Shown here: in pieces, positions 14,400 through 43,746 of the stretch
Numbering within the stretch: position 1 is the first letter of the stretch
Layout of the letters: each line of letters opens with the position of its first letter
NCBI GenBank assembly: GCA_963575745.1
Contig: CAUYUJ010000001.1
Coordinates: 558,001-622,000, forward strand
Source: Prorocentrum cordatum
Taxonomy: Eukaryota
DNA: 64,000 nt
Direction: 5' to 3'
Program-made: the position numbers and the translations under genes
Notes under the pieces: generated by a model
What the model was told of the DNA's origin: nothing
Database searches by the model: none
Seen by the model: only the letters and a program-made list of their open reading frames with translations

Positions 14400-14558
14400 A
14401 AGTAATCTCCCCAACGGGGGCGTGATCGAACACAAAAAGGGCGGGTATCGAGGGTGTGGGGAACACGTTTGGAATGACACACTGGCAGGTAAGAGCGAGC
14501 AGTCTTACATTGATTGTTGTTGGTGTTGTTGCTGTTGCTGTTGTTGTTGATGATGATG
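14400..14558 (+). mobile_element. Short SINE-like module ending in a hairpin and (TGT)n tail (family also at 14705-14801/32779-32815, 38560-38700, 43920-44290)
   Basis: Shared GGGCGGGTAYCGAGGGT...AAGAGCGARCAGTCTTA..TGATTG(TTG)n across the copies. Confidence 0.6.
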
Positions 14559-14801
14559 AACCCTCGCTACAGAAGAAGAGTTATGGTTGATCCCCGCTTT
14601 TTGGCGCACATTGTATTTTTCAATTGAAATTCCCCTCCCGGCGCTCGCACCTCTTTTTTCTGATCAGGGGAAGTCCTGGGGCTCAAAGTGTGTTGTTCCC
14701 CCGGGTTGCAACAACAACAAACAATCATGTTAAGAGTGCTCGCTCTTATCTGCTCGCGCGTCAGTCACTATGCATATCCCAAACCCTGGATACCCGCCCT
14801 C

Positions 14802-14997
14802 TGTGTATGGAACCCGTGTAATACCCTCATATATACTCCTTATCCTTACCTCTCCCGCACCTGGCCGTTTGGGCTCAGGTACTGAGTTGGAGCGATCGTA
14901 CCTTGATCGCTTGGGAGGGAAAGATATCCATCTATCCCTCCATCTCTCTACCAACGGATCAGGGGTTCTGTACTCTTGTACTTCAACCCCATACACA
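14802..14997 (+). repeat. 5' LTR of giant copia (196 bp)
   Basis: TGTGTATGG...CCATACACA forms a perfect 9-bp terminal inverted repeat; matches 32583-32778. Confidence 0.97.
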
Positions 14998-15010
14998 GGT
15001 TATCAGCCCT
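14998..15010 (+). promoter_or_regulatory. Primer-binding site of half-tRNA (anticodon-arm) type
   Basis: GGTTATCAGCCCT follows the LTR and has no TGG. It is one mismatch from GGTTATGAGCCC, the complement of the iMet anticodon stem-loop used by Ty5 and Drosophila copia. Confidence 0.75.
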
Positions 15011-15453
15011 TTAACGCTCACCTTCACCGACTCGCCCGCGGTGACCTTGCATGCGAGCCCAATGGAGCCGCTTCGGCGCATGCGCCGTAAGGGTTCCATT
15101 GGGGCTTCGCGTCCAAGCTCTCCCACGGTGCGACGGCTCGGTGACGAGTTGGAGAGCATTAGTGCGGACTGTGTTGGTGTCCCCGATACCCCCCCCCCAG
15201 CTCCCGAGGACCCGAGGCGCGTCTAGCTGCTGAACTTCGCCGCAGCGCCGCCCGCGGGGGGACAGGAGAAGGAGTAGGAACAGGAAGGAAGGAGTTTCAC
15301 ACGCCGACCTTTGATCCTCCCTCCCCTTCCCCGTCGGGAGCAATCCCAACCGCGTCAGGCGAAAGCCTTACCGGTCTCGATACTCCAGGGCGCTTCCGCG
15401 CTAACCGCCGATGGACCTCAGGTGCTGGAACCCCCAGCCCTGCGACCGTCCCT

Positions 15454-18400
15454 GTGGCGGAGCACGTAGCTACCTTCGAGGAACTCAGTAGACCAGTGTC
15501 GGCACAGCCACAGACGCGGTACCCCAAGGTATCATCGGATGAGACATCACACACACATGGTCCGAGTCGCAGCTCGTCCGCGCGCAACCGCCGTGGAGCC
15601 CCAGGCCCATGCGGCGAGCGCAGGTCGAGCCCGCGTGCTGCCTCTCAGAGGCCATGCACTCCCCGCGACAGGGGACACAGGGAAGCTGACGCTCCCCACC
15701 TCTCCATCTCAGACGACCAGCCGGCGGAGACGTCCGCCGCAGGTGACATAGCTGAGCTCAGAGACCAGGTTGAAACCTTCGTGTCCAGCCAATACTCTGG
15801 ACTACTACAGAGCGTTCAGACGAACGCCACTGATACTGCAGCCATACGTCGCGATCTTGACGGCGCCTTAGGGATCATCGATTCCAGGATCGCCGAAGAT
15901 AGACGCATCATAGGAGAACTGCAGTACCAGGTTGATCGTGAGGTGTCACACTCAGGTGAACGAACGGCGATGGTCGAGAACCTGCGCAACTCTCTCGCGC
16001 AGATGGAGCAACAACTTGTGATCGTACGCGACACAGGCATTTCTGCGGTCAGGGTTTTACACGATGAGATCCACGACCAGCTCCGTAACCGACCAACCCC
16101 AACCGAGGCCACAGACCTCGGCGACGTTCAGTCTCAGATCAATGATCTTCGATCTTACCTAGACCACACTACGGCGACGCTTCGTGCCGAAGCACACACA
16201 AACTCGTCGAACCTGATCGACATGTTGCAGCGTACTGAGAGAGTCATCACTCAAAGGCTTGATGCGACCAACGCTGTCGTGCAGCCACTCGCTAACCGGA
16301 TCTCTGACATAGAGCAGCGTTTCCCTGGTGTACAGGACGCCCTGGCAGAGTTGCGTGTCGGACGAGCCCAGACTGATCAGCTGGATTCTCCTCCCACGGT
16401 TTACGATTTCGCCCGCCTCACTGACAGGTTGCAGGAGGTTGAGAAGGCGGCGGACCACACGCAGTTAGAGCTCTCCCAGGTTATTCATGAAAGAGATACT
16501 GAGAAGGTACGTGTTGAGAGTTATCTCGCACGACTGGAAAGCGAGGTGGAGGCACAAAGCGCCCGTCTCCGAGCATGCGAGCAACGACTTGATCGGTATT
16601 CCCAACGGTCTCGGGATACTGATGAGTATACACGCCAAAAGGTGGGTCAAATACAAGAAGACATGACGAGCTGGACGAATCAGCTGATCGACCACACTAA
16701 CGACACCAACATTCACCTTCGACCTGCAGCCGACCCGCACAGGCCGACGGCAGTGTCCGCCGAAGCACCACAAGCTTCAGCAGGACAACAACGACGTACA
16801 TCTCCAGGAGCAGCCTCCGCGGCAGCTTCTGCACAGACACGCCATGTGTCTCCTGTGCGCACAGAACCAACCATCGACGGTGCACCGATACCCTCACAAC
16901 CAGTGTCTGCGGTGTCGGTACATACAACGACGCCTATCAAGGAGTCAGACACCGTTCGAGTACCTGTCTTGCCTAAGATCACGCAGCTGCTGGAGTGGCA
17001 GCAAAGAGTGCGAAAGAACTTCGGGGCCGCCTCAGGGCGACCATCCAAAGCATACGCCTTCCTATGCGTGGCAGAACAGCCCGAATGTACATTCGAGGAT
17101 TTACAAGACAGTGGAGACTTTGAGAGCATCGATTGCAAACTCGCAACCGCTCTGAGCGACATCTTATCCTCAGACTTACGCTACCAAATCAGGCTCATCG
17201 AGACCAGAGAGCACAAAGCAGGACGCATGCTCAAAGGACGCCAGATATACTGGCATATCCTACAGTCCTACAAAGTGACAGACGTCGACGACGACCTGCA
17301 CGATTTCGAGCGCCTTAAAGAACTGAGGATGAGAGACGAAGATTTGCAACGTTTCATTACCGATTGGGACGCCTTACTCTTGGAATGCCGAGAAGTACCC
17401 GATCCAAAGATATTGGAATCGCTATTCCGCACACAGATTCGTAGACATGCATGGATGAAACAAGACATGTACGAGTACCAGCGCATGAAGATGAGCGACC
17501 CGAATCGTACCTACGGTTGGCTTCGACAGCGTGTCCTGGACATACTGGAGATTAAACAATTGGAGAAGAATCAAAACAAGCTACGGTACGAACACGAGAC
17601 ACGATCTCAGGTCAACGTGTGCGTTGCATGGAAGAAAGGCAATTGTCGCAATGGTGAACGGTGCAAGGCTTTACATACATATTCCAGGGATTGGAAGAAC
17701 AACAAATCTTCCAGAACATCAACGGCTGGTGGCAACCCCCGCCGTAGTATGTCCACTCCTGCGAATCACAAGAAGCCAGCATCAAGGCCATTCTGCTTCG
17801 ATTTTGCCAAGCGCAACACATGTACCAGAGGTGATAAGTGTAACTACCCGCACGTCGCACAGTGCAAGGATTTCGCACAGAACAAGTGCACAAAAGGCGA
17901 CAAATGCAAATACGCTCATCTCGCACCTGGTGCAAAGACTCCTGAACGAAGCCCGAGTCGACCACGGACTTCCAGCCAGGACAGCCGTGGCCGATCACCA
18001 TCCCGCGGATCAGGAAGCCAACGGTCTTCACAACGCGGGGGGTTTCGCTACGCAAGCGATTCACGACAGGGACGTGACAACCGACGCCAATACGACCGAT
18101 CCCGTTCGACATCCAGGAGGTCCCAAGACTCTCGCAGCCAATCGAGAAGTCGTTACGACAGATCTTCGAGATCTACCTCCCGAGGACGAGACAATCGTGG
18201 CGGCGGACGTGGCAGTCCACGCGGCCGTGATCGATCATATGGCAGTGACAAAGGACGTGGCAAGCGGTATCCGAGCCGCGGATCGTCCCGTGGTTCACCC
18301 AACACTAGAGCACGTTCTCCTGCCAACTTTAGACATTCACGCCGTTCAGACCGCAGCTACGTCATCCGCGACAAGACCCTCATGGCCAACACCAAGGCCA

Positions 18401-21400
18401 CAACGACATCTACCAAGATACGTCGTCGGATACGCTTCGACGTACGCAACGTGGACTACTATTTCCATACCATATCTGGCAGAGCCAGACTGGACAGGTG
18501 GAAAGAGCTGCCGAATGAGGGTGACATCGTCAAAGTACCAGATCCATTACCACAAAAATGGTGGGATGATAGTGCAGAGGCCTTACGAGAATGTCAAAAA
18601 GAGGCACAACTATGGTACGACGAACTGTACGACTACCGACACAACAAAGAGTCGGTGGCCACACCAACTGCGATCCGAAAGCATGACGACACTGTCAAGC
18701 AGTCATCAAAGACTGCCCAGACGACAACAACGACAAAGCAAGTCGACACTCCACGCTCGACTGCAGCATTGACAAGGTCTTGGGTTCTTGACAGTGGTTC
18801 TGCCCATCATATTCAGGGAAAACATGAACTTACGCAGACCGAGTCGGATCGCATATCTATTCGCGAAGAGCATATTCTGGAAACTGCAAATGGTGATCGT
18901 ACCGTCAACGAGCACTACGACATACGGCTACCCGAAGTTGGACTGCATAGTTCAGCCCTTGCTTTACCAGACTGCCCATCATTACTATCAGTTGGAAAAT
19001 TGATTGAGGTTGATGGCTTTCGACAGCTTTGGGATCCTGAGCTGGGCTACATGCTTCAGGATCCGGGGGGCCAATGGTATAAGATTCCAGTCAACAATCG
19101 AGTGCCAGAGTTACGACTCGACGACTTAACACGGATACCACCGCCACGTTTATGCACTTCGTCAGCACCCCGCCGTCGTCAGCGAAAGCGTTCATCCGCC
19201 CGCTGCAACGACACTTGTTGGTGCTGCAAAACTACAGAGCAACCAACCACTGCAGACGAGCTACGACCCCACACAGGGACCTGCCCCAAGAGACCACATG
19301 TCGGAGAGGGAGGAGGAGCACGGACCATCACGGTCGAAGAACCTCCCGACACACGCACAGACGAGCCCAGCGTGGACACAACCACCGACTCGCCTACGTC
19401 TCAGACGCAGTGTTCTCCTCCACAATGCGGGGGGTTCGATATAGCTCAAGCAGACAACGACATACCGACAGAGACACCCACGCGAACGCATCCAGACAAT
19501 GATCGAGTTCTGCCCAACAGACAAAAGAAACCGATCGATCCGATGCATTACATGACTCACAGCCCAAAACATCCTGACTGTGAGATCTGTTCTCGTACGA
19601 TGGCACAGAATGCCCCGTGTAGACGACAGCGCAAACCACATCCACCGGCAGACCCCACCGAAGAGGATAACGCCTACGAAGCTTTTGTCCCGAAGGAGTT
19701 CGGTGAAGCTCTAACTGCCGACCATATCGTACTGGCCAAAGACGATGCCGCGGACAAACATGGCGACAAATATGCACTTGTTGTCCTTGACAGATATACT
19801 GGCATCTTCATGGCCTACCCAGCGCTACACAAAGACGCAGCTACTACAAAGGCATCCTTTCAACAGTTCATCGCCGCTAACGATGAAGTGAAGCATATCT
19901 ACACAGACAACTCTGGAGAGCTTCAGAAAGCTTGCCGCCAACTGGGATGGAGACACGACACGAGTACGCCACATCGTCCACAGACAGATGGACTGATTGA
20001 GCGCGTTGTCAAAATTGTCATTCTTGGTACCAGAGCTGTGTTACATATGTCTGGTCTGGGACACGAATGGTGGAAAGAGGCCATGCAAGCCTTTTGCTGT
20101 GGACACAACTTTGTGCATGCATCCACGGGCGTCGCTGCCCTCAACGAGGAGCATGCAGAAAAGACAGCTCATGAAATAAGATTTGGCGAAAGCTTTCCTG
20201 GGCACTGCATACCATTCGGTGCTCGGATATTTTGGAAATGCCTCAACCCCGAGATTAACAACGAGACTGCAAAGTTTAAAGAAAATGCTCGGGAAGGGTT
20301 ATTCATGGGATACCACTTACACTCTGGTGGACGATGGTCAGGTGACTACCTTGTTTTGGACACGGCTACATACGCCAAGAATCCTGATGGTGATCTGTGT
20401 CATGTGCACAGAGTCAAAGACATCATCATTCCTGATGGCAAGTTCACCTACCCCGTGAAAGATGGTACTCTACGACATCATAACCCTGAGGCACACGACG
20501 AGGTGAAGGCATCTACTTCTCGCCCCTTGGGTGACAAGCCAATGCCTGATCCTCCACTTTCTTACCCTAAAGAATGGGATGATCCGTCTATGATGACGAC
20601 GGAAGATAACGCTATTGATACCCAGACATCGGCTTCTGGAGTTGCTGCGCCAGCGCCGGAGCCAGACTACTGGGAACAGCGTGGATATTGCGTCATCAGA
20701 CACATTCGTACCCCAAGAAAGAAACTATTCATCCCAACGGACGACGTCATGAATATACCGGTACCTGTTGACCAACTCGACGTGACACGAGATTTCAAAA
20801 CGACTTCTACTTTCGAAGGCGAAAGTAACTTCCGAGATGTTTGGGATGGTGTTAGCGCCAACGACCACAGGGAGCTAAGCGAGCCGTGGACAGGCACGAT
20901 ACAGTTCTATGAGCTTCCAAAAATAACGCCAGACGGCAAAATGGTGGTTCGTGGACGCGAGACACGCGTGCAGAATACTACACGTCCTGATCACGTTCTT
21001 CCCGAGCATTGGAAAACACTTTCCCGTGGACAGCAAAAGAAAGAGATCGATTACGCCAACGACGTTAAACGAGCCCGTGAAATTCGTGATCGTGCTGCAT
21101 TGAGAGTGTGGACAAGACAGGATAAACAGGTCAACAATTTCCGTACTACTACATCAGGCGGACCCACATGGAATACTGTGGAACGACGGATTACATACGA
21201 CACTGACAATGGCGACGTCATCCGCGACGAGAATGTCAAAGGCGTGACAAACAAAGAAATACTGTATGCCAAATTACCTGGTGGGCCACGTGACATTACC
21301 ACGGTACTATACTACCGTCAACTACCACAACAGCACGATGGAGAAGAACGTGCTTTGGTATTTGTGGATAATGAGGGAACCGACTTTGGGACTTTGAACC

Positions 21401-21555
21401 CGCTCATACGCAAGTTCACCCAGTCGGTAGCAATACCAACCATGCCACGTGAGACCAACTACATGCCGGCACACAGAGATAAAATACCAGATTCGACATG
21501 GTCACGCCCAGCATTAGTTACCAGAAACCTGAGTAAGAAAGAAGTTGCCGCATAA
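15454..21555 (+). CDS. Gag-PR-integrase portion of the giant copia polyprotein (2033 aa open frame; start uncertain)
   Basis: Long coiled coil; three CCCH fingers; RS/RG-rich tract; WVLDSGS protease; HYMTH..CEIC plus TADH/TDNSGE/DGLIER integrase; LFMGY motif. Confidence 0.92.
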   Translation: MAEHVATFEELSRPVSAQPQTRYPKVSSDETSHTHGPSRSSSARNRRGAPGPCGERRSSPRAASQRPCTPRDRGHREADAPHLSISDDQPAETSAAGDIAELRDQVETFVSSQYSGLLQSVQTNATDTAAIRRDLDGALGIIDSRIAEDRRIIGELQYQVDREVSHSGERTAMVENLRNSLAQMEQQLVIVRDTGISAVRVLHDEIHDQLRNRPTPTEATDLGDVQSQINDLRSYLDHTTATLRAEAHTNSSNLIDMLQRTERVITQRLDATNAVVQPLANRISDIEQRFPGVQDALAELRVGRAQTDQLDSPPTVYDFARLTDRLQEVEKAADHTQLELSQVIHERDTEKVRVESYLARLESEVEAQSARLRACEQRLDRYSQRSRDTDEYTRQKVGQIQEDMTSWTNQLIDHTNDTNIHLRPAADPHRPTAVSAEAPQASAGQQRRTSPGAASAAASAQTRHVSPVRTEPTIDGAPIPSQPVSAVSVHTTTPIKESDTVRVPVLPKITQLLEWQQRVRKNFGAASGRPSKAYAFLCVAEQPECTFEDLQDSGDFESIDCKLATALSDILSSDLRYQIRLIETREHKAGRMLKGRQIYWHILQSYKVTDVDDDLHDFERLKELRMRDEDLQRFITDWDALLLECREVPDPKILESLFRTQIRRHAWMKQDMYEYQRMKMSDPNRTYGWLRQRVLDILEIKQLEKNQNKLRYEHETRSQVNVCVAWKKGNCRNGERCKALHTYSRDWKNNKSSRTSTAGGNPRRSMSTPANHKKPASRPFCFDFAKRNTCTRGDKCNYPHVAQCKDFAQNKCTKGDKCKYAHLAPGAKTPERSPSRPRTSSQDSRGRSPSRGSGSQRSSQRGGFRYASDSRQGRDNRRQYDRSRSTSRRSQDSRSQSRSRYDRSSRSTSRGRDNRGGGRGSPRGRDRSYGSDKGRGKRYPSRGSSRGSPNTRARSPANFRHSRRSDRSYVIRDKTLMANTKATTTSTKIRRRIRFDVRNVDYYFHTISGRARLDRWKELPNEGDIVKVPDPLPQKWWDDSAEALRECQKEAQLWYDELYDYRHNKESVATPTAIRKHDDTVKQSSKTAQTTTTTKQVDTPRSTAALTRSWVLDSGSAHHIQGKHELTQTESDRISIREEHILETANGDRTVNEHYDIRLPEVGLHSSALALPDCPSLLSVGKLIEVDGFRQLWDPELGYMLQDPGGQWYKIPVNNRVPELRLDDLTRIPPPRLCTSSAPRRRQRKRSSARCNDTCWCCKTTEQPTTADELRPHTGTCPKRPHVGEGGGARTITVEEPPDTRTDEPSVDTTTDSPTSQTQCSPPQCGGFDIAQADNDIPTETPTRTHPDNDRVLPNRQKKPIDPMHYMTHSPKHPDCEICSRTMAQNAPCRRQRKPHPPADPTEEDNAYEAFVPKEFGEALTADHIVLAKDDAADKHGDKYALVVLDRYTGIFMAYPALHKDAATTKASFQQFIAANDEVKHIYTDNSGELQKACRQLGWRHDTSTPHRPQTDGLIERVVKIVILGTRAVLHMSGLGHEWWKEAMQAFCCGHNFVHASTGVAALNEEHAEKTAHEIRFGESFPGHCIPFGARIFWKCLNPEINNETAKFKENAREGLFMGYHLHSGGRWSGDYLVLDTATYAKNPDGDLCHVHRVKDIIIPDGKFTYPVKDGTLRHHNPEAHDEVKASTSRPLGDKPMPDPPLSYPKEWDDPSMMTTEDNAIDTQTSASGVAAPAPEPDYWEQRGYCVIRHIRTPRKKLFIPTDDVMNIPVPVDQLDVTRDFKTTSTFEGESNFRDVWDGVSANDHRELSEPWTGTIQFYELPKITPDGKMVVRGRETRVQNTTRPDHVLPEHWKTLSRGQQKKEIDYANDVKRAREIRDRAALRVWTRQDKQVNNFRTTTSGGPTWNTVERRITYDTDNGDVIRDENVKGVTNKEILYAKLPGGPRDITTVLYYRQLPQQHDGEERALVFVDNEGTDFGTLNPLIRKFTQSVAIPTMPRETNYMPAHRDKIPDSTWSRPALVTRNLSKKEVAA

Positions 21556-24351
21556 CCACGTGCACAAGAAGCCCTACGAAAAGAATACGAGAGATTGGAA
21601 AAGAAACAAACATGGATGTTGGAGACTGTTGCAGAAAAAGCTGATATTGAGTCACAAGCTATTCGCAATGGAACAAAGGTGCATTTCTTCAATTTCTTGG
21701 CGTTATCTTCAGTCAAACACGAAGAACTTCCTCCTGATCTACGTAAATTCAAAGGCAGAGTTGTGGTTCAGGGCAATACAGGAAAAGATGAAACTGGTTT
21801 GGCCGCCATATTCGCCGACGCCGCTTCCAGTGCTTCGCATATAGAGGCTTCCAAACTTTGCGATGCTACTGCGTTATTACCGCAATATGCGGGAGAGCAA
21901 AGTGACGCACCTGGAGCTTACACGCAGGCACTATTATACGGCGACGGACGAATTGATCCAGTTGATACTTGGATTACTATACCTAAATGGCGACAACCGA
22001 CATCATGGTCAAAATGCAATAACCCAGTGTGCCGATTGCGATTGGCACTATACGGACACCCTCTTGCAGGTGTCTTTTGGGAACGAAAATGCCGTACATG
22101 CTTGGAAAGCGTCGGTTTCGAGCCTATTTCAGGATGGGAATGTGTATGGAGACACAACAAACTGGGACTGATACTTTCAGTATATGTGGACGATTTCAAA
22201 TTGGCCGGCCCAGCTCATAATCTACAGACTGGCTGGGATTATATTCGTAAAAGCGGTATCGATTTGGATCCACCTACTCCATACTCACAATATTTGGGTT
22301 GTGGACAACAAGCATATGACGTACCGCAGAGCATCTTCGACAAAAGAATGTCCACAATACGCCCTATGCTACCTGCACACAACGAGAAATAATACAATAC
22401 GGCAAAACACGTTCGTGGTATTCGACATGACATGCTTGGTTTTACAGATCAGTGCATTGAGCGGTACCTGGAATGCGCCTCCAAGCGCGCCCAGGGAACA
22501 GGGTCACGTCGGAAACGATCCGACTCGCCGAGGGCTTCGCGATCCAAATCGCCATCCTCCTCCGGGTCGGTCGCCAGACCTACTAGTGTGCTCAACGCAC
22601 GGACAAGATCATCCAGCCCAGCAAAACCGGTCGACACAACTTCTACCAATACCATACCCGCCACATACCATGATCTACCCGACGCAGAGACCCCTGGCAT
22701 CGAGGACACCTCCTTCACTGAGTCCGACTATTTAGACGAGGGCGTTCTCGGCCAGGACGCGGCAAGTGCACTAATGAAGATCCTGTACTTGGCACGTTGC
22801 TGTCGTTTCGATCTTCTACATCCGGTATGTATGTTGGCCAGAGAAATTTCCAAATGGAATACTACATGTGACAAACGTCTACATCGGTTGATATGCTGCA
22901 TCAAAACGACGCGCACACATTGCTTACACGGATGGATCGGCGATTCATCAGACAAGTTATCCATCATGCTCTTCACTGACGCCTCGTTCGCTGATTGCAT
23001 TACATCATCTAAATCCACTACCGGTGTTTTTGCTGCGCTTGTTGGACCCAATACGTTCTTTCCAGTCAACGCTGTATGTAAGAAACAAACGGTTGTTTCA
23101 CATTCATCTACTGAATCGGAGATCGTTGCTCTCGATTCCGCACTACGACTGGAAGGGTTACCACTACTATCATTCTGGGAAGCCGTGGTGGGAGTTGCCA
23201 AAACATGCAAAGAGAAGAATACATGCCTGAGTTGCCATCGACACGTTGACCCGGCGATGTGTCCTACATTGGCAGCCAAAAAGAAGCGTAAACCATCGCC
23301 TCGCAAGGCACCCCCTACTCGGGGATCTTCTCCTAGCCGTAGGCAACTACCGCTAAATACGGATTTACCTACGACTCCAAAGAGACGTACAATATCCCAT
23401 GAAGGTACCGTACTACACGTGGATCCAGAGCCAGCTCCAGAGATCAGTGCACCGAAAGTACGACTCATCGTCCTGGAGGATAACCAGGCCGTTATCAAAA
23501 TTGTCCAAAAGGGACGTACACCAGCACTTCGTCATCTTCATCGTACTCATCGTATCAATCTGGATTGGATATGCGAAACATGTCAAATTGAACATATCGA
23601 GCTTAAATATGTAGGAACAAAAGAGCAGATCGCAGATATGATGACCAAACATTTCGAGACCAAGAAAGCAGACCTTTGGAAGGACCTCTTGGAACACTCG
23701 CTTATTTTTCCTGTTACTCCGATACAATGTCCGCCGATACGAGGGCCTCGGAGGCCCGACGGTTTACCTCATGAAGCGGAACCTCCTAAATTGAATGGAT
23801 GCCCAGAAATATGCAAGATATTGCTGACGGAAAAAGAAAGATGGGGCGAGGTAGGATCAGAATGCGGATTTCAGTGTGTTGGACAAGCTAACCATGAGGG
23901 GCTATGTGCATGCATGTACCACTATGGCGTACCAGCCGCAGATACTGCGTCGCGCACACCTCGTTCACGCGCACGTTCACCGCACGGTAGACATCCTCGC
24001 CATCCTCCCTCACCTCAACGAGATGCAGAGAGAGTTAGGACATTGATTATTCGTTCACACCGCAGCAATTTTACGACTCGAGCTACAAAGCTTACAAGCA
24101 TCCTGTTTGCTGCTTGCGAGGCGAACATAAGTGAGATCGGTTCTAATCCCGACCCCTCCATCCACGAGATGGATCAGGCACAGCCGCTCAACCTCGTCGG
24201 CTGGCCCATCGGCTACGACAAGGAGTGCGACCCGAACGCCAGGGGCGATGACCGCGTGGGCTTTGCGTACCACGCTCAAACTGGTCGTCCTCGTGATCCC
24301 GAAGATGGTTACATATACATACATCAACGGCGTGCCGATCGGAGCGGATAA
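21556..24351 (+). pseudogene. RT and RNase H of giant copia, same frame as upstream ORF, broken by in-frame TAA codons (21553, 22390)
   Basis: KFKGRVVVQGN, SDAPGAYTQ, LALYGHP, YVDDF (22183), YLGC; RNase H TDASFA, SSTESEI, EDNQAVI, QIADMMTK. Confidence 0.92.
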
Positions 24352-27300
24352 TTTGATCTTCGCGTACCCGACGAGTCTTCTATCCGTGAACTTGCCCGCT
24401 TCGCGTCCGTCGAGGCTAAGGAATGGGCCAGCGCTGAGAGTGGATCCGTCGGCGGCAACGCCAACTACGAGTACAACACGTTCACAGCTACGCCGTGGCT
24501 ATCTTTCATGCGTGCTATGTGTATGATTTCCAGCCTTTTCAATCGTAATCCTTCAGTACAAGATAGTGTTCGTGGACTACATGATCACTTGAATGCGACG
24601 ATCCCAGGATCAGACCGCAAATGTCCACCATCAAACTTTACTACAATGATACTGAAGACGGAGTGGATGATGATTCACAACGATTGGTCCAAAATTGGCA
24701 GTGCAGTTCTGGGGCAATACACCGAGGACAGCGTTACGGATACGCAAAACTATTACAACAATGGTCTGAGTGTACCATCCGATGTATGCCAGAATGGATT
24801 GGTAACGCCATGCTATGCTCCTAAAATTGATCGTGCAATGGCCAAGCTACCTACTCGTCCACCTGGCATCGCCAGGACATCGGATACATCTGGGCACATC
24901 GGTCATATCGTCGAGGATAACTTGGTCACCAACACGAGAGCCTTTTCCGACCTTACCCAAACAAAGAAGTTCCGCCGCAAGCTTACTACATGGTTGACTA
25001 CGCGCGGAGGCTTTGGAAGTATCGGATCAAACTCCAAGACGGTGGCAACACCATCCGACCATCCGAATGGTTGGGTGGCGATATTGGATGATCCACAAGA
25101 GACAGAGCGTACCTATCGTTGGACACCATACAACGAGGGCAACGACTTCTTCGGCGACGCTGCTGACCACATGGGTTCGAATGATCCTGGCATGACTCCT
25201 GACAATGATGTGGACCCATTCGAGCTGGACCACGCAAAATACAGTGCTTTCTGCGGTGGTCGCTTGGTTTCTACCCTATTGTCAGACAATGGGTGGCACT
25301 CCCTCGTACAAGAGGACGTGGGACTATTACATCATGCATTTGGGCCATCGGGTCATGCGTACAAATGGACCAACTTATGCACGGACTCAACATGGATCAT
25401 GCATCCGAAGAAAGGGGCTAAGGGTGCAAACCACAAGAAGTACCCCACTTTCGGCATCGACGAGCTCAACGCTGCCCAGAAGAGAATCGACCTTGCCAAA
25501 GCATCAAATACTGCTCTTGTTCCGCTATTCATGCCGTGCCTTAACCGCGCGGAATACATGGGTGGCGCTACTCTTGAGCACCTGTCGACCATGATCCGCG
25601 ACGACATCATGATGTGGGCATTCTCTTTTGGCAATTACAGGGAATGGTTCAGACAGAATGACACGCCGATCGGTCAAGATTGCGTTCTCTTGCCTGAAGC
25701 TGGTTATGAGGGCGTACGATACGGAATGGAGGAACTACGCAAGCACCGTTTCGAGAAAGAGGAAAGCCATATCAACGCTCTTCTCAACAATCAGTTTGAG
25801 AACACTCTCGAGCAGCGCAATATGATCAGGAAGATCCGCGAAGCCAGAGGCCTCATGTTTCAAAGCGACAACGCTTCCATCAAGAAGTGGCGTGAGCTGA
25901 ACGAGACCATCTGGGAATACTGGGCCAATGATTTCCCATCATCCATAAAACAAAGACACTATCACAGGGGACTCAATGCCATGGTAGTATGGAGTGCGAA
26001 CGACATCGCATGTGCTAATCCTGGACAGAACACCATCGACATGCGCCGACATCACAGTCGTGCTCCTACCAACGTACACGAGCTCCAAAAGATGGAATGT
26101 GAGGGCGGCGTCCCGACGCTCATGCCCGTGCACGTGCTCGTGGACGTATCACGTTTTGTCGATGTGATGCAGTATTTCCGCTGCCCCACGGTCATGGGAC
26201 CTGGAAAAGCAGCGCAATGGGGCGTACACCCGAACTTTGATCACCACACGAGCGACTTGATCACTATCATGCAGAACCGTGGTATCACTGTTCTTCCATC
26301 CGACCATTGGGTGGATACGTACGACAGGGTTACCCCGCAGGCTTGGCACGCCAAACAGAATAACCACAACATGGCAATGTTTACAACGCAATTCTGCGAC
26401 GCAGTATGCTATCGCAATTTTTGCGCATTGATACAGTCTCTTCCTTCTCAGCCATATCCATTCAGGCCGCCATTGCTGACTTCTGTCACGGACAACCAGG
26501 CCTACACTCGGGCCAAGGAAATCATGGCAGCCCTCGACTTCAGAGAAAAGTTGACAAGCGAATGGAAAAGAGACCTCAGCCTCACAACATTGATGACACA
26601 GACGGCAAACGAGATGGCTCATTGTGCGTGGATGGCGTCATGTGCCGAGGGCACATTGCCGGCATCACTGCCTGCCGAGACGGGCGACACGACTGAGCCG
26701 ACTCCTGGAAGGTCTACACGTACGCCAGCAACGGACCCTAGCGATCCTGACCAAACCCTTCCTGATAATGATCCATGGGTTATGGCATACAACGACTTAT
26801 TCCAGTACCTTATGTTGTTGATCAAAGAATACCCTGGGGCTTGGGCATCTTGGCATTCTCTTGAGAAAGATGAACTTCTAGAACCCAAGATCGTCAAAAC
26901 TGTTGAAGATGCACATGCAGTTACTTGGGTTGTATTCGAGCAATTCTTACGTCAGATCAAAGAGTTGGATGGAGACGATAATGCGACCAAATCAAGACTC
27001 ATTGCAGAAGAAAACAGATTGTCTTCTCACCGCATCGGCCCAGCTGCCGAGAACGAGAAGAACATCGAGGCATGCAAAACATTCTTCAAACAGAATGCAC
27101 TGGATCGAGTTGCTTTGGGTCATGACCCTAATGTCCCTACAGCCGTATGGAGGGCAGCTGATGACACCGCACAGCCAGCCCCACCAGGCCCATTGCCCGA
27201 TCCACTGCAACCTGGACCGCAATCGATCAAAGCGTCGCAACCATCGACTCCAGAGCCTAAAGCAGAACAACAACCAGCAGATCAGCTCCCAAAAGCTGAG

Positions 27301-27891
27301 GCGGTACCGATCCCTGATGACGGCACCGACCTTGAGGCAATGGAGCTGGAGGCAACTCCTGCTGAGGAGGAGCCTTCTCCACATGAGATGAATATATTGT
27401 CATGGCAGGACAGTTGTGAGCGTTCCATGCACGAGGATACCAGCAAGCTCGGGATCTTCGACAACCCATGCACTATTCGCGAATGGAAGTTACAGTATGG
27501 CGTCAAATATGAACATCCATACATGTGCCCCATGTTGCGGGGCACGACAGCGACCAATGGATTTGCCTGCGTCGAAGACCAAGAGTGGTACGAGCAGCTA
27601 CTGCATGATGGTAGTGTAATTGCTCATGCGCCTGACATTGCACAATCTGGTTGTTTCCCAGAATGGAAATGGATACCATTACCACATTACGACGATGTAC
27701 GTTATGGTCCTGAGCTAATTGATGAAGAATGGCTGGGAACAAACAAATACATGAGCAAAGACATCACGACTATGTTACGCCATGAGATTCACTACAAAAA
27801 GTTTTGGACCAACCAATTTCATGACAGACGTATTAATATCTGGGACAAAACAACAAAGAATGATTGGAAGATTCCAAGCAATTGGAAATGA
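24352..27891 (+). CDS. Cargo region 1, in frame with pol after TAA 24349: unknown domain, probable SGNH-fold domain, and N-terminus of the Tpt1-like domain
   Basis: About 1180 open codons of high-complexity sequence; CTDSTW, GGATL, VVWSANDI and AWHA occur in SGNH block order; MSKDITTMLRHE lies near the end. Confidence 0.7.
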   Translation, partial: FDLRVPDESSIRELARFASVEAKEWASAESGSVGGNANYEYNTFTATPWLSFMRAMCMISSLFNRNPSVQDSVRGLHDHLNATIPGSDRKCPPSNFTTMILKTEWMMIHNDWSKIGSAVLGQYTEDSVTDTQNYYNNGLSVPSDVCQNGLVTPCYAPKIDRAMAKLPTRPPGIARTSDTSGHIGHIVEDNLVTNTRAFSDLTQTKKFRRKLTTWLTTRGGFGSIGSNSKTVATPSDHPNGWVAILDDPQETERTYRWTPYNEGNDFFGDAADHMGSNDPGMTPDNDVDPFELDHAKYSAFCGGRLVSTLLSDNGWHSLVQEDVGLLHHAFGPSGHAYKWTNLCTDSTWIMHPKKGAKGANHKKYPTFGIDELNAAQKRIDLAKASNTALVPLFMPCLNRAEYMGGATLEHLSTMIRDDIMMWAFSFGNYREWFRQNDTPIGQDCVLLPEAGYEGVRYGMEELRKHRFEKEESHINALLNNQFENTLEQRNMIRKIREARGLMFQSDNASIKKWRELNETIWEYWANDFPSSIKQRHYHRGLNAMVVWSANDIACANPGQNTIDMRRHHSRAPTNVHELQKMECEGGVPTLMPVHVLVDVSRFVDVMQYFRCPTVMGPGKAAQWGVHPNFDHHTSDLITIMQNRGITVLPSDHWVDTYDRVTPQAWHAKQNNHNMAMFTTQFCDAVCYRNFCALIQSLPSQPYPFRPPLLTSVTDNQAYTRAKEIMAALDFREKLTSEWKRDLSLTTLMTQTANEMAHCAWMASCAEGTLPASLPAETGDTTEPTPGRSTRTPATDPSDPDQTLPDNDPWVMAYNDLFQYLMLLIKEYPGAWASWHSLEKDELLEPKIVKTVEDAHAVTWVVFEQFLRQIKELDGDDNATKSRLIAEENRLSSHRIGPAAENEKNIEACKTFFKQNALDRVALGHDPNVPTAVWRAADDTAQPAPPGPLPDPLQPGPQSIKASQPSTPEPKAEQQPADQLPKAEAVPIPDDGTDLEAMELEATPAEEEPSPHEMNILSWQDSCERSMHEDTSKLGIFDNPCTIREWKLQYGVKYEHPYMCPMLRGTTATNGFACVEDQEWYEQLLHDGSVIAHAPDIAQSGCFPEWKWIPLPHYDDVRYGPELIDEEWLGTNKYMSKDITTMLRHEIHYKKFWTNQFHDRRINIWDKTTKNDWKIPSNWK

Positions 27892-28570
27892 TTTAAAGAA
27901 ATGGTTCAATGGAAATTCCGAGATCGCAAAGAAAGACACAATGGACCATCCATGGAAGCGGGAGTGGCACATTTCAAGAAAGACGGTGAAAATGATGGAT
28001 ACACCGATTGGAACGACTACTATCCGATATTCATTATTCGTGCGTTCCAGAAGCATATTGACCCGCAGAAAAAACATAATCGAGATATACGCCAAGCCGA
28101 TTCCTGACGGAGGTGACCCCAGCACTTTTGACTGGAACAGCGTTATTGCTATTCGGTGCGTCGGTGGTCACAGTTGTGTCAACTCATCTTCAAAGCCATG
28201 GAACATGGGATGGGAGAGCTTACAGTGGGCAGATATCAAATATCTCCATCATGGAGCAGCATCCCGCGCCTGGAAGAACATACTGAAGACAGGGATCATT
28301 CCTGGATATGTTGAACCACATTCTCAGAGAGACAGAACTTATAAACCATCGCAGCGATCTGAGGCATTCTTCAGTTCTAGCACATATTTGAACAATGTTC
28401 AACAGAACCCACATACTTCAGTGGAATCGTACAAGTTCAACAGCTACAAGAACGAAGTCGAGCTGGTGATCAACATGGAGATCGCCACAAAAGCAGGTTG
28501 CAGATTTTGGTTGGGGGCTCAGGGCGCTATCATGACTGAGAACGTGGTACCCGCTGCGGCAATTATTGCA
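27751..28570 (+). pseudogene. Tpt1/KptA-like RNA 2'-phosphotransferase (ART-fold) domain, with TGA at 27889 and a frameshift near 28075
   Basis: Ordered motifs SK.ITTMLRH, AIRCVGGHS, YLHHGA....W..IL..GI.P, RSEAFFS and I.M..A...G.RF....GAIMT..VP parallel the Tpt1 motifs LRH, IRAxQGHS, YHGT, RxHVH and GxxF..VxL. Confidence 0.78.
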
Positions 28571-31500
28571 ATTCGCCGCCTCAAACCACACCACATGCAT
28601 GGCCAGCAGCTGTGGCCAGACGGCGGCCCATGGGACTACCCGCCATTGGCAGCCAGAGAGCCATTGAGCAAGTACGAGATTTGCGCCTGCCTTCCTGGGG
28701 AACTTATTGACGACCCACCTGGATTGGCACCTATCGGCCCCGACCAAGACATGGAGCCTCCAAGGATGACGCCAGCATCAGCACCCTCGGCCAGGCTGGG
28801 GGAAACCCCTGCTGGCCGTACATCCGCAGAGGACGCCTTGGACGAGCAAATAGTACGTGCTATGATCCAGGAGACCAATCACAAAGCAGATGATAAAGAA
28901 TGGTTGATTGCATTATCACATTGTCGTGAAGCTCTTCGACCAATCACAGCAAAGATCATGCAAAAAGATTGGGATCGTCGTCCTGCATTTAACGATGTTC
29001 GAATGGGCGACTTCATTGTCATTAAGAATTGGGGCTCTACCAAATGCTTCCACTACGACAACCATTGGCCCAAAGGCAATCACAATACCAAGATTGCCTT
29101 GTCCAAGGGACACATATATGGTCCAATCATCCATTTCGGCATCTTCGACAAGTTCTTTGCGGTACAAGTACCTATTCTCAACTACGGTTTACGATGGGTA
29201 AATATCTGGTATAATGACAAAAGCATGCCCCTCAAGGGCGTTGTATTTGCATTGCCGATTCGTATCGAAGAACACGCCATCGATCCAACATGGATGGAGA
29301 CTGCCCTGAAAGGCCCGACATCTTGCAGCGAGGAGATACTGCAGCACAAGGTTAGCGGCAGCTTACCATACCTTGGAATGCCTAGCATCCATAGACCACG
29401 TATTCCGCGTACACCACCAAGAAGGCCCGCTCCACGGACACCTGATCCAGACGAGCTGGTGGCCACACCTGCCGAGGACAACGCTCAGACGGGCGACATT
29501 CCTCGACAGGGTACAGCATCATCGCATGATCCACTGATCACCGTAATCGTGGACATATCAAATATCGTTCTTACTGCAGATGAGAAAGCTGCGAACGACA
29601 ACATGAGGGCAGACCTCTCGGCAGACATCCAAGCAGAAGAGCAGATCGAGGCAAGCATCCTCGATAACATCATTGATCCGCCATCGAATTTCCTTGATCA
29701 TCCAGACTACGACCCCGACGAGGATTCAAGATGTATTAGACAGTCTGATGATTGCCGCGTGTATTGTTGGACATCGGCGCTATTGGTGGATTCGCCTATG
29801 ATCTAGATGAGGCAGATCATTGAGATACACAGTGGCGCAGACAGAATCGTAATGGACAAAATTCAGTCACATTTACAATTTGAAATTCGATTTGGATCGA
29901 AAGCATGGAACGCGGAGTCATATCATTTGAACTACAATCATACCCACAAGTGGGCACATGACTTACCCAATTGTGGTGCAGATCACTTCATCAAAAAGTT
30001 GGTACACTACCTCGACCCAGAGACTATCGAGGAGTCGACCACTGGCATCTTTCAATGGATTTCCAAAGTATACCAGAACATCTTGAAAGATAGTATTGTG
30101 GAGCTACCAGATTTCGCCAAGGAAGTCATCCATGACAACCATCCTGCACTTCAGGCATTGCGTGACCTATACAAAAATTGTACTGCGACATACGGTGATC
30201 CAGAGTTTCCTGCGTGGGAAGAGCTGGTGGAAACACCTGCTGCGCCTCGAGAGGAGGGCGCTGAGCAGGATATTCCCCAGGACCCAGGCAGTGTTGCGTC
30301 TGCAGCTCCCGATCAGGAGACTATGGTACGCATCATAGCTGAACAGACGGGACTCAAGCGCGAGGAGGGCGACAACGAGGCTACCTTGCAGAAGCAGGCT
30401 CGCCGTCTTCGTGAGGAGAACGTATGCCATGGCGGTACTGAGGATACCGACAACGTCAAGATAGAGTACAAAGGACTGCCAGGGGAAAGGTTGTCTCGGA
30501 TCGAGATCGAGGGTTTAAGCAGATCGATCGCTTCCAGGCCAAACACCGAGATCAATCGTGAGGCGATCAATCAGATCGGTCAGAGCCTCGCTCGCGGTCA
30601 GGACACCCGCTGGGGATCCCGCGATCACCTGACTTCGGCAGGGCCCCCCGAGACGATCTTGCATCCCATACCGCTCTGTAACAACTGCGGTCGAGATCTG
30701 TCCCTCGGTATCGTCACAGGTGACGGCACACTATGTGATATATGTTGGCAATACACTGTGGCCGTAGGCGCCACAGGTAAGAGCACCGCCACACAGAGTG
30801 ACCTCGCGTACCTCCAGAAGTTGACGAACTGGATCAAGACGACGTTGTCCGAGGACCAGGTCGCGAGATACATGAAGGATGGCGCACATGTCATTATGAC
30901 GGGTGCGCGATCCCCCATAGGCACAGAGAAAGATCAGTTGCGGAGATTGGCCAATACGTCCAAGAAGAGGTATCAGAAGTGGGTCGAAGCCGGTAGCCCG
31001 CCTGCACACGAATGCAGATTAATGGGCGAATCCGAGGACGACCGACCTCTGTACTACCCATACGCCAATCTCATTCAACGCTTTCTCAACGACCTCAGAT
31101 TCCATCATCAGATGACAGGAGCCCGCGTGAATGTCGGCAAGAAGCCCTGGAGAGTCGAGGACATGCGCGACGCGTGGGACATCCTTGACGTCAGTATTAG
31201 GACAGGACAGGCTGGTCGGAGAAAGTGGTGGCTGAACGAGGGACGCATTGACAGGCAGACGCGGCAGGCGCGCGGACTGATTACGGTTTCTCTCCCTCGA
31301 GGGGACGGAACCCGTGAACAGTTCACCCAGCGCAAGCTTGCCGCGATTGCCAACGAGCTGATAGGCTCCCTCGATCCGTCACACACTGACCAGAGGGGGG
31401 GTAGTACAGGGATGAGAACCGATCCAGATACACACTCCCAACAGTCCGATGACGCCATGGAGCCGCGGCCGCCGCCGCGGCCGCCGCCGCGCCCTGCTCC

Positions 31501-31837
31501 TGGCGACGCCGCTGCATCCAGCGCCTCAGGCGCGGAGGACTACATGCCCGCGATGCCGCGCGCCAAGAGAGCACGTACATATGATTACGCTGCTTACTGG
31601 CGCCACAATCTCGAGGACAGCGATTGGGGTCTTCGATGCTGGAGTTATTGCATCAAATGTTGGATCTACATTGCGATCAACAACGACGAGTATGTGTACA
31701 TCCAGGATATCACGTACAACGATTGGTTCCGCAACTGGATCCCGAGGACCACTTGGGAAACGTTTACGACAAGCTATGTGACGTACAACGGCCAGAGGGC
31801 GTGGGACCGCAGGTTCTACAAGGACGGCGACGCGTAG
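28571..31837 (+). CDS. Cargo region 2: unknown protein, same frame across TAG 29804, with a CxxC..CxxC ribbon and a Trp/Tyr-rich C-terminus
   Basis: ORFs 27782-29806 and 29807-31837 are contiguous in one frame; CNNC..CDIC lies near 30677-30745. Confidence 0.65.
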
Positions 31838-32571
31838 TGAGTCGGCCGCAAGGCCCGCTGCTCAAGAGCAGAACTTCCGTTCATCAAAGTTCGCCTTGAG
31901 CGGTGGCTAATGCATTCTTTTAGGCCACTTCAACCTTTCACACAAGTGGCCATGCGCACATATAGATATCTTTTGCGATCACCGAGGCAGCCTCCTAAGG
32001 AGCAACGCCAACGGGAGTCGCCAAACAGATTTTATACATCATTTTCGTGTTCATCAACACGACATTTTCTCCTGGCCAGGTACTTGCTTTAACGCAGATT
32101 TGCATTTCTTTCAGGATCGTGTTCGTCAACACGATCTGGGCATACATTTGCTTTTAGGCAGACTTGTGTTTGATTTCAAGATTGTGTTCATCAACGCGAT
32201 CTTAGCATGCATATTTTAACAATTTAACAATATTGTGTCGAGAATAATCTGATGCTGGTGGCAACACCTGCCTCGCAAATCTTGCGAGGCGGTTCGCGTT
32301 GCCTTGGTGCTCAGATCTTCTTTCTCCGCCTACCTTTGTCTCATTCTTCTCCTCCCTCGAGCGCCGAAGCGCTTTGGGGGGGCGCGCCGAGGGGGCGGCA
32401 AAGTCCGCCTGGAGAAGAAAATGAGACCCAAGGTATCTCTTCTTACCTCAGTTTGCAGCTGTGGCTTCGCTGACTTTTAGCCCAGCTGCCTTTCTGATTT
32501 AAGGTAAAGGAGTTCTGAGGTTACGGATTCCATCTCCCTGATCCCGAGTCCTGCCTTCACGGGCGGGATTC

Positions 32572-32582
32572 GGGACGGGGGG
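32572..32582 (+). promoter_or_regulatory. Polypurine tract of giant copia
   Basis: GGGACGGGGGG abuts the 3' LTR. Confidence 0.8.
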
Positions 32583-32778
32583 TGTGTATGGAACCCGTGT
32601 AATACCCTCATATATACTCCTTATCCTTACCTCTCCCGCACCTGGCCGTTTGGGCTCAGGTACTGAGTTGGAGCGATCGTACCTTGATCGCTTGGGAGGG
32701 AAAGATATCCATCTATCCCTCCATCTCTCTACCAACGGATCAGGGGTTCTGTACTCTTGTACTTCAACCCCATGCACA
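32583..32778 (+). repeat. 3' LTR of giant copia (196 bp)
   Basis: Identical to the 5' LTR except A14993 versus G32774. Confidence 0.97.
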
Positions 32779-33574
32779 CCCTCTTCGTCTTCGATCGTAC
32801 CCCCTGTTGGGGGGGATATTCATTCCCTGCCACGTGTGGTTGGGGAAGCCCTTGACAACGAACGGTGACAAATAACGGGGGAGAATGATGGCGAAGGGAT
32901 CGGAGGAAGGGAGGGGAGGGGCAAGAAGGAGGGAGGACGGTGATTTGCGTTGTGAGTGGCGATTCAGCTTGCGCCATGGCTTGCGCCAGCCACTCCAACA
33001 CAGGTTAACGATAAGTTTCGCCATGGCTCGCGCCATAAACAGCGCCACGTACCACCCCCTTGAAATAATATATCGTGGATACCCCCACGGGGGGACGTAC
33101 AGCTGCGAACTGGTGTCAGAAACAAATTCTGTGGAACCGTGAAAAGAAGCGGGATGTTGGGGTAGTGGGGCAGAAGGATAGTGAGAACTGCAACCGTGTC
33201 GAAAGGAGCGCGGAAGCTCGAAGTGAGAGCGCGATTCTTCAATACATTGTGAAGAAGTATCAAACGGGAGCCGCGATCCGGTGGTCAATTGCAAGGAAGT
33301 CCCAAGCGAGAGCGCGATTCTTCAATAACTTGTGAGGAAGTATCAGGCGGGAGCCTTTGTTGAACCTTAATTACTAAACAATTATTATTGTTGGACCCCC
33401 TATATTCGCCCTGGCGCTCTCGCCGAGGCGCCGGCCGCATTTCCTCTGAAATTGAGGCTCGCGCTCAGGCGTTTTGGGGTTCCGCCATAACCGGCCCCCC
33501 AACAACAACAACTCTCCGGCTCGAGACTTCCTCTTTTTTTACTCGGGCTCGGTGCTCTTGCTCGCCGCCGAGAG

Positions 33575-37019: not shown

Positions 37020-38357
37020 ACCTGAGGCTTCCTCACATTTTAGCCAGGAGCCCCGTTCCCGCCTGAGACTTCCTCGCATTTTATTAAGAAATCGCGCTTT
37101 CGCTTGGGACTGCCTTGCAATATATTGGGGGATCGCTCCCTCGGCGCTCTGGAGTCGCGCTCTCCCTGGAGACTCGCCTGTCGTTTTTAAGAATCGCGCC
37201 CTTGCTTTGCACTTTCCGGCAATTTGCTCAAGCGCCGCGCTCCCGACACAGGCACCCAGGAGTCGCGCTCAAGCTCAGGACTCCCTGAAAGATTATCTAG
37301 GAATCGGGATCTCGCTGCCCTTCGTGGCCCCGTTGAAGCCGTTCGTGGCCCCCTCGCTGCCCTTCGTGGACCCGTTGCAGCCCTCGTGGCCCCCTCGCTG
37401 CCCTTCGTGGCTCCGTTGCAGCCTTTCGTGGCCCCCTCACTGACCTGGTTCCGTTGCAGCCCTTCGTGTCCCCCTCGCTGCCCTCCGTGGCCCCGTTGCA
37501 GCCCTTCGTGGTCCCATATACGTCTGCCCTTCATGGCCCCTCTCGCTGTCCTTCGTGGCTCCGTTGCAGCCCCTCGTGGCCCCCATCGCTGCCCTTCGTG
37601 GCCCCGTTGCAGCCCGTCGCGGCCCCCTCGCTGCCCTTCGTGGCCACGTTGCAGCCCTTCGTGGCCCCCTCGCTGCCCTTCGTGGCCCCGTTGCAGCCCT
37701 TTGTGGCCCCCTCGCTGCCCTCCGTGGCCCCGTTGCAGCCCTTCGTGGTCCCACATACGTCTGCCCTTCATGGCCCCTCTCGCTGTCCTCCGTGGCTCCG
37801 TTGCAGCCCCTCGTGGCCCCCATCGCTGCCCTTCCTGGCCCCGTTGCGGCCCTTCGTGGCCCCCTCGCTGCCCTTCGTGGCCCCATATATGTATGCCCTT
37901 CGTGGCTCCCGCTCGTTCGCGCCCGTCGTGGCCCCATATGCATGCCCTTCGTGGCCCCGCTGTCGCCCGTCGTGGCCCCCTCGCTGCCCTTCGTGGCTCC
38001 GTTGCTGCCCTCAGTGGCCCCGTCCTTGCCCTCCGCCGGCCCTCCGCGGCCGATTATACGTTTGCTCTTCGTGGACCCCGCTCGTTCGCGCCCGTCGTGG
38101 CCCCATGTGCATGCCTTTCGTGGCCCTGCTGTCGCCCTTTGTGGCCCCCTCGCTGTCCTACGTGGCTCAGTTTCTACCCTCAGTGGCCCCGTCGTTGCCT
38201 TCTGTGGCCCCGCATTATCTGCCCTTCGTGGCCCCCGCTCTTTCGTGCTCTTCGTAGCCCCATACGCATTCCCTTCGTGTCCCCGCTGTCGCCCTTCGTT
38301 GCCTACTTCGTGCCCTTCGCGGCCCTGCTGTCGCTCTCTCTCTCGCTCTCGTTTTCG

Positions 38358-38424
<67 letters not shown>

Positions 38425-38700
38425 ACGTCGTCGACGTCGATGTCGTCGTGGTCGGTCTCCTGTCCGTCCCTCTTGGGGCCAGGTTGCCGCCGGTCAGCGC
38501 TGCCGCTGGCCAGGCCGACGGTCCGTGGCCGCCCCGCCGCTTGCCGGGGCCCGGCCTGCAGGGAAGAAAGGTATACCCCCCAAAAGGGGTACGATCGAAA
38601 ACGAAGAGGGCGGGTCTCGAGGGTTCGGGAAATACGCCTTCACGGATGCTCGAGCAGACAAGAGCGAACAGTCTTAAAGTGATTGCTGTTGTTGCTGTTG
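37020..38700 (+). repeat. Composite repeat: lead-in, about 21/42-bp GCCCTTCGTGGCCCC minisatellite, (GTC)n, SINE-like tail; direct copy at 42560-44290
   Basis: Both copies have the same order of blocks and shared unique junctions (GGAATCGGGATCTCGCTGCCC; GGAAGAAAGGTATACCCCCC). Confidence 0.9.

Positions 38701-43714: not shown

Positions 43715-43746
<32 letters not shown>

Follow-up and report, generated by a model that had tools for sequence, protein, structure and literature searches.

The window analysed here, a stretch of 64,000 nucleotides filed under Prorocentrum cordatum (positions 558,001 to 622,000 of contig CAUYUJ010000001.1), contains a giant long terminal repeat (LTR) retrotransposon, in which an earlier sequence-only reading had placed a domain of the Tpt1/KptA RNA 2'-phosphotransferase family. 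This locus raises the question of whether a domain that is interrupted in the window by a stop codon and a change of frame is a genuine enzyme of the element, and what such an enzyme could do for a retrotransposon. The evidence presented below indicates that the domain is very probably a genuine Tpt1/KptA-type phosphotransferase/ADP-ribosyltransferase, which acts on nucleic acids in dependence on nicotinamide adenine dinucleotide (NAD+), and that it lies in frame within the polyprotein extension of an 18-kb retrotransposon family of copia gene order. The window itself contains a young, inactivated copy of this family, in which there are five stops within the frame, a single frame change and HGA in place of an HGT motif. 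All positions given below are those of the window, and all features lie on the + strand.

The domain is located between RNase H (22969-23667) and the 3' LTR (32583-32778). Five motifs that the sequence-only reading had listed in this interval were all found, at the same places and in the same order, in the sequence and in the list of open reading frames (ORFs). MSKDITTMLRH is encoded at 27751-27783 in frame 1, and the other four are encoded in frame 2: AIRCVGGHS at 28148-28174, YLHHGA from 28241, RSEAFFS from 28355, and GCRFWLGAQGAIMTENVVP at 28496-28552. The domain is split in the window, as had also been noted, by a TGA and a single frameshift: frame 1 is halted by the TGA at 27889-27891, and a move from frame 1 to frame 2 is needed between 28069 and 28078, within a run of A. 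A putative N-terminal RNA lobe extends over 27751-28192 and is recognised by its motifs, namely SK..LRH (27754-27783), a K-x-R-I-E strand (around 28069-28090) and AIRCVGGHS. The C-terminal NAD+ lobe, with the ADP-ribosyltransferase (ART) fold, follows at 28193-28618 and contains the motifs HHGA (28247-28258; the Ala codon of HGA is 28256-28258), IIPG (28295-28306), RSEAFFS (28355-28375) and FWLGAQGAIMTENVVP (28505-28552).

Support for the family assignment was obtained at the level of sequence profiles. The frame-2 ORF alone gave PF01885 as its sole Pfam match (20 bits, E 7.4e-4), covering profile positions 73-176 of 177. After the frame repair that had been proposed as a check, with read-through and X at both breaks, PF01885 was again the sole Pfam match, the score now being 25.6 bits (E 1.5e-5) against a gathering cut-off of 26 bits. 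Matches in PHROGs for the window, and in NCBIfam for the relative P0062, were to RNA 2'-phosphotransferase models only. An exhaustive HMMER search with window segment 28082-29803 detected 64 proteins at E <= 1e-3, mostly short fragments. When ten of these were scanned against Pfam, four matched PF01885, namely P0053 (43.5 bits), P0062 (39.2 bits), P0058 (27.0 bits) and P0009 (21.7 bits), of which the first three pass the cut-off and the last misses it; P0062 spans profile positions 6-176 of 177. The same scan gave no PF01885 match for P0005, P0015, P0025, P0026 and P0029, and it identified P0063 as an unrelated bacterial Ig-repeat protein, which was rejected as a relative.

A 33-row alignment of the domain (A1) was the source of the profile, the AlphaFold model and the residue counts given hereafter. 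The A1 profile searched against the PDB retrieved eight sequences at E <= 1, all of them Tpt1/KptA/TRPT1 (best E 0.0063); a single-sequence PDB search with the domain yielded two unrelated matches only, at E 0.61. The AlphaFold model built on A1 has a mean predicted local distance difference test score (pLDDT) of 64. Within its C-lobe (model residues 151-292), the means of ten-residue blocks range from 62 to 97, with 8 of 14 blocks at 80 or above. All 13 Foldseek matches at E <= 1e-3 were Tpt1, and so were the top 17 rows of VIA-align (Z 13.4 to 9.5, identity 14-25%). The best of these rows was 7yw2 (Z 13.4, root-mean-square deviation (rmsd) 2.2 Å, 113 residues aligned, 20% identity), and this structure and 7yw3, the best fold matches in VIA-align, both represent mammalian TRPT1. 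In the predicted model, the C-terminal NAD+ lobe has the Tpt1-type ART fold.

These comparisons bear directly on the alternative that the domain is a chance resemblance, or belongs to another class of ART such as DarT or a toxin-type enzyme. A PF01885 score below the cut-off in the window and the general likeness of ART folds would be compatible with it, and the VIA-align row next to the Tpt1 structures is Scabin, at Z 9.3. Scabin, however, is only 7% identical to the domain and ranks below the 17 Tpt1 rows, while DarT (8baq) appears in Foldseek at rank 26 with E 0.064; in addition, relatives pass the PF01885 cut-off, and the tetrad specific to Tpt1 is present. Already disfavoured, this explanation is highly improbable, and a DarT-like activity, which had been offered among several functional ideas, is the least favoured of them. 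Since profile, fold and relatives agree on the same family, the resemblance is more than a chance match, and the assignment to the Tpt1/KptA type was upheld.

The Arg-His-Arg-Arg tetrad is essential in Tpt1, where it holds the substrate by its 2'- and 3'-phosphates, as described in PMC6333775. In the window, the first Arg and the His are encoded at 27778-27783, the second Arg at 28154 and the third at 28355; their equivalence to the tetrad of Tpt1 is based on motif position and on Pfam and hidden Markov model alignments, not on residue-level superposition. Across the rows of A1, the tetrad is kept in 8/8 (Arg), 8/8 (His), 14/14 (Arg) and 15/17 (Arg) cases. The Arg-His pair and the last Arg, which had appeared retained in the sequence-only reading, and the other later Arg as well, are thus present both in the window and in the family. 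Relatives in A1 that are 27-42% identical to the window keep the tetrad together with the motifs of the NAD+ lobe.

The state of the window copy was compared with that of its sister copies. At the site of TGA 27889, all nine fragments spanning it in frame have a sense codon (Ser in six, Pro in two, Tyr in one), and a tenth fragment, P0075, changes frame there. Across the A-run at 28069-28078, 8 of 10 informative sister fragments are continuous, and the other two, P0067 and P0075, stay in frame 1 as the window does. In every one of four public runs, some contigs are one base shorter at this place, and loose ends give the shorter form. The length of this run varies, with six A in the window (28069-28074), five implied by most sister fragments and more than that by P0067. 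The TGA and the frameshift are thus no features of the family. At the site of TAG 29804, Lys is found in 3/3 sister fragments. For the two TAA at 22390 and 24349, the contig depth has G in place of the T of the window, entirely or almost entirely, so that the codon becomes GAA. An alternative genetic code or programmed read-through was considered for the stops and rejected, as the sisters have sense codons at four of the five (22390, 24349, 27889 and 29804).

The HGT motif of the NAD+ site is likewise altered in the window copy. The whole contig depth of the four runs has A for G at 28256, which restores Thr, and Thr is present in 11 of 15 A1 rows; the change of HGT to HGA pointed out earlier therefore applies to the window copy and not to the family, which has HGT. 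This change probably matters, because the RslTpt1 double mutant H99A-T101A, affecting the His and Thr of this motif, is reported to be severely defective (PMC6333775). Judged by comparison of the copies, the TGA, the frame change, HGA, the two TAA and the TAG are defects of the window copy or of a minority of copies. The 40 best-supported differences between the window and the other copies include 18 that are synonymous and 22 that are not. Because sister copies mostly stay in frame and possess the full set of motifs, the family encodes the Tpt1 domain as part of a polyprotein some 5,550 codons long. The absence of the domain from sister copies, which would have spoken against its being part of the element, was not observed: the sister fragments carry it, mostly in frame.

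Marine green algae of the Pyramimonas-like kind contain this element family in abundance. With the interior divided into 30 bins, contigs of the four runs cover every bin and their summed depth is high, which indicates an abundant family, and 22 short proteins matching the N-terminal part at 57-87% identity are all source-labelled Pyramimonas sp. Such data also bear on the possibility that the domain is a passenger, derived from part of a Tpt1 gene, cellular or viral, that was captured once and is of no use to the element. Capture is a known origin of accessory domains in LTR elements (PMC9289625), and the window copy is broken and its N-lobe much altered. Mere carriage is nevertheless improbable: the tetrad and the NAD+-lobe motifs have been kept among relatives as distant as those in A1, the frame is open in most sister fragments, and the family is high-copy in all four runs.

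Several results weigh against the identification as given and its extension to a family-wide polyprotein. The PF01885 score of the window copy lies 0.4 bit below the cut-off, and this copy is incapable of making the protein. For the N-terminal lobe, nine N-lobe pieces gave no PF01885 match, hhalign of sister N-lobes against P0062 aligned 13 columns (IAIR..GHS) at a probability of 1.4%, and residues 1-88 of the model have pLDDT <50. Reverse transcriptase (RT) and Tpt1 were seen together on a single long sequence only, the window, the other contigs being short. Moreover, summed contig depth over 24392-32580 is two to three times below that over 15000-24391 in all four runs; relatives without the extension may exist, or gag-pol may merely attract more distant copies. 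The N-terminal RNA lobe of the window is described here as putatively expanded, and the SK..LRH and IR..GHS motifs are what speak for it. The model of P0062 aligns with Tpt1 across both lobes (8tfi, 148/177 residues, Z 10.8, rmsd 4.1 Å), with low confidence in its N-lobe.

Additional searches for related polyproteins were made. A search for proteins of near length gave no match, and a search among longer proteins with the A1 profile gave only P0058, encoded on a 3,127-bp contig, and no other polyprotein joining RT and Tpt1. In metagenome scans, no match was obtained with P0062 as query and one weak match of 50 residues (L001) with a window piece; scans of viral contigs gave none.

The domain is carried by an LTR retrotransposon that is complete and measures 17,977 bp. 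The LTRs, 196 bp each with TG..CA ends, are located at 14802-14997 and 32583-32778 and are identical at 195/196 positions by blastn, a difference of 1 in 196 that marks a young copy; together they form a direct repeat. The target-site duplication (TSD), read from the sequence, is CCCTC at 14797-14801, and the identical five bases follow the 3' LTR at 32779-32783. The primer-binding site (PBS) GGTTATCAGCCC adjoins the 5' LTR at 14998-15009 and lacks TGG, and a purine-rich tract, GGGACGGGGGG, precedes the 3' LTR at 32572-32582. With these LTRs, a 5-bp TSD, a PBS, a purine tract and the order protease, integrase (INT), RT and RNase H, the element is of the Ty1/copia type, INT before RT being the copia order. 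The proposal that the domain belongs to a giant copia LTR retrotransposon was thus substantiated.

The interior is in essence one reading of about 5,550 codons, in frame 1 from 15163 to 28105 and then in frame 2 to the stop at 31835. The gag, protease, INT, RT and RNase H part, recognised from ORFs, Pfam and motifs, occupies frame 1 at 15163-24351 and is interrupted by in-frame TAA at 21553, 22390 and 24349. Along it lie CCCH zinc fingers of gag (17644-17919; Pfam zf_CCCH_4, 45.1 bits), a DSG protease motif (18784-18810), the integrase core (19753-19980; Pfam rve, 30.3 bits, E 5e-7, cut-off 32.6), a copia-type RT (21745-22302; RVT_2, 27.8 bits, E 2e-6, cut-off 31.6) with YVDD at 22183, and RNase H, identified by motifs. 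As the rve and RVT_2 scores fall below the Pfam cut-offs, the element is a divergent member of the copia type. Its gag fingers are of the CCCH type; CCHC knuckles are usual in the gag of LTR elements.

About 7.5 kb of coding sequence lies 3' of RNase H, and the Tpt1-like domain is situated inside it, about 4 kb behind RNase H. The first part of this polyprotein extension (24352-27750) continues the pol frame, open over 1179 codons, and shows no recognisable domain; the remainder behind the Tpt1-like domain (28619-31837), defined from ORFs, is in frame 2, is interrupted by TAG at 29804 and ends with the stop at 31835. For the flanking stretches of 1,133 and 1,088 residues, no match was found in Pfam, NCBIfam, PHROGs or the PDB. 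A nested insertion bringing its own TSD was considered as the origin of the domain and rejected, there being no direct or inverted repeat of at least 18 bp in 24000-32600 and the frame being continuous from pol through the domain and beyond. Sister fragments join the N-lobe to the sequence upstream of it and the C-lobe to the sequence downstream, and by tblastn the window contains one copy of the domain. A link to ribozymes or retrozymes was also rejected: a search of 14500-33100 against Rfam gave one sub-threshold microRNA match (E 0.88).

A segment of 47 residues at 26146-26286 (..VMGPGKAAQWGVHPNFDHH..) is common to the extension and the N-terminus of P0062 (36 bits, E 9e-6). This sharing suggests that the Tpt1-containing module predates this retrotransposon family. 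Behind the Tpt1-like domain there is in addition a conserved, apparently beta-rich segment (about 28760-29450; G.IYGPI...FAVQ.P...GLRWVNIWYND...), without a match in Pfam or the PDB. It is present in P0002, P0010, P0038, P0047 and P0059 as well, and in P0058 it is found at the N-terminus, before the Tpt1 domain.

As to what the enzyme may do for the element, the phosphate-binding role of the tetrad in Tpt1 argues for nucleic-acid phosphate chemistry rather than modification of proteins. The Tpt1-like domain would be made as part of Pol and would travel with RT, and it could use NAD+ to strip the 2'-phosphate from an RNA that RT needs. Two candidate substrates may be proposed. One is a primer made from a cleaved tRNA fragment, at its 3' end; the other is the 18-kb template RNA, at a junction that keeps a 2'-phosphate once a tRNA ligase of the plant type has resealed it. 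The proposal assumes that a 2'-phosphate hinders RT. Removal of 2'-phosphate from primer or template RNA is the activity that we favour, tentatively; its substrate, its packaging with RT and its benefit are what we infer. The wider reading, that Tpt1 was recruited as a replication factor which would strip 2'- or terminal phosphates from the primer or the resealed template and so allow reverse transcription to begin and to be completed, is possible but rather doubtful. Since the rest of the extension is unrecognisable and no ribozyme was found, the mechanism is put forward conditionally.

The primer-end candidate was suggested by two observations. The PBS without TGG would not pair with the 3' CCA end of a tRNA, and a subset of Tpt1 enzymes is described as removing terminal 2'- or 3'-phosphates (PMC6573784). 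The PBS of the window element begins with GGTTAT. Drosophila copia and other elements are primed by an internal tRNA fragment, and the PBS at 14998-15009 has what we take to be two differences from the complement of the initiator-tRNA anticodon loop. A half-tRNA-type PBS had been described earlier; the PBS does lack the usual TGG, and the 64-kb window contains no tRNA gene to which it could be matched.

Set against this function are the following points. Nothing was found that ties the enzyme to primer or template RNA, the PBS being matched to no tRNA. Beside the Tpt1-like domain, no CPDase (cyclic phosphodiesterase), kinase, ligase or macro domain was detected in scans of Pfam, NCBIfam, PHROGs and the PDB. 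To our knowledge, other copia elements with tRNA-fragment primers do without a Tpt1 domain.

The same domain might instead ADP-ribosylate the 5'-phosphate ends of element RNA or cDNA, providing a cap-like structure that shields them from exonucleases or ligation, or marks the ends. ADP-ribosylation of nucleic-acid 5' ends by Tpt1/TRPT1/KptA is reported (PMC12678800, PMC10415124, PMC6582358); the reaction takes place in the active site that serves phosphate removal, and this site is conserved in the element. The best fold matches, 7yw2 and 7yw3, are mammalian TRPT1. The scans of Pfam, NCBIfam and PHROGs, however, detected no ADP-ribose hydrolase partner (macro or NADAR) in the element, and 2'-phosphate removal is described as the general activity of the family (PMC6333775). 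Capping is considered unlikely to be the role of the domain.

A host-directed or counter-defence action was also weighed, in which the domain would act on host RNA or on a restriction mark, erase 2'-phosphates of tRNA or consume NAD+. KptA is reported to erase an internal tRNA 2'-phosphate in archaea (PMC9095486), and NAD+/ADP-ribose enzymes are described as common in virus-host conflicts (PMC9503650). The domain, however, is fused to Pol and is not a separate product. We know of no defence partner or target in green algae, and such an action appears quite unlikely. Removal of 2'-phosphate from primer or template RNA thus stays the favoured, if tentative, activity.

The fixation of a new enzyme domain is a rare event among LTR retrotransposons, and every instance has drawn attention to a stage of the life cycle at which the host is limiting. 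From the conservation of a Pol-fused Tpt1 domain, it would seem that RNA or DNA 2'-phosphate or end chemistry matters for the replication of this giant element. If the role in replication is true, it would represent the first RNA end- or junction-healing activity encoded by a retroelement, and a natural system for Tpt1 action outside tRNA splicing. What Tpt1 does in cells, apart from tRNA splicing in fungi and plants, is described as obscure (PMC6333775, PMC6573784), and a mobile element that keeps the tetrad provides a compact and testable system of one domain, one RNA and one RT. The element also adds to the Tpt1 family an uncatalogued clade with a putatively expanded N-lobe.

The rest of the window is likewise rich in mobile elements, in the regions 6084-11063, 45114-51963 and 52705-54240. 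There is a second copia-type RT (RVT_2, 44.8 bits), a long interspersed nuclear element (LINE)-like endonuclease with RNase H ORFs, both of these under the cut-offs, and an RVT_1 reverse transcriptase (33 bits). At 1-4022, three copies of a unit about 1.7 kb long occur, 97-100% alike, and the blocks 37300-38700 and 42800-44300, about 5.35 kb apart, consist of short tandem units (21, 12 and 9 bp).

In comparison with known systems, the element of the window resembles Drosophila copia and other elements primed by an internal tRNA fragment, with which it shares a PBS that starts GGTTAT, lacks TGG and adjoins the LTR, a 5-bp TSD, and INT before RT. With the enzymes Tpt1/KptA/TRPT1 (PF01885; 7yw2, 7yw3, 9ld4, 8tfz, 6e3a, 1wfx), the domain has in common the fold of the NAD+ lobe, the motif order SK..LRH, IR..GHS, HGT, R..F.S and G/N-A-I-M-T near the end, and the tetrad. 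Those enzymes are free-standing proteins of about 180-250 residues, whereas the domain lies in the interior of a retrotransposon polyprotein with about 5,550 codons; their RNA lobe comprises about 85 residues (CthTpt1), against about 140, unrecognised by profiles, in the window, and the window clade has insertions of its own (MGW after GHS, a loop before R..F.S, and YKFN). The DarT DNA ADP-ribosyltransferases share a related ART fold and a nucleic-acid target, but the match to them is much weaker, and the domain differs from them in its Tpt1 tetrad and in the LRH motif near its N-terminus.

That LTR elements can acquire additional enzyme domains is known. In a full-text literature search, no paper was found joining Tpt1, KptA or TRPT1 with an LTR retrotransposon or any other transposable element, in accord with the earlier remark that no copia element was known to have been described with this domain. 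Orchid Ty3/Gypsy elements are reported to carry an N6-methyladenosine (m6A) RNA demethylase domain (PMC9289625), and LTR elements of plants and oomycetes an added RNase H (PMC5348765). According to these reports, a cellular nucleic-acid enzyme domain lies in the coding region and is kept across copies, as in the element described here, which differs from them in that the domain is Tpt1, the gene order is that of copia, the host is a prasinophyte-like alga, and the 7.5-kb extension around the domain is otherwise unrecognisable.

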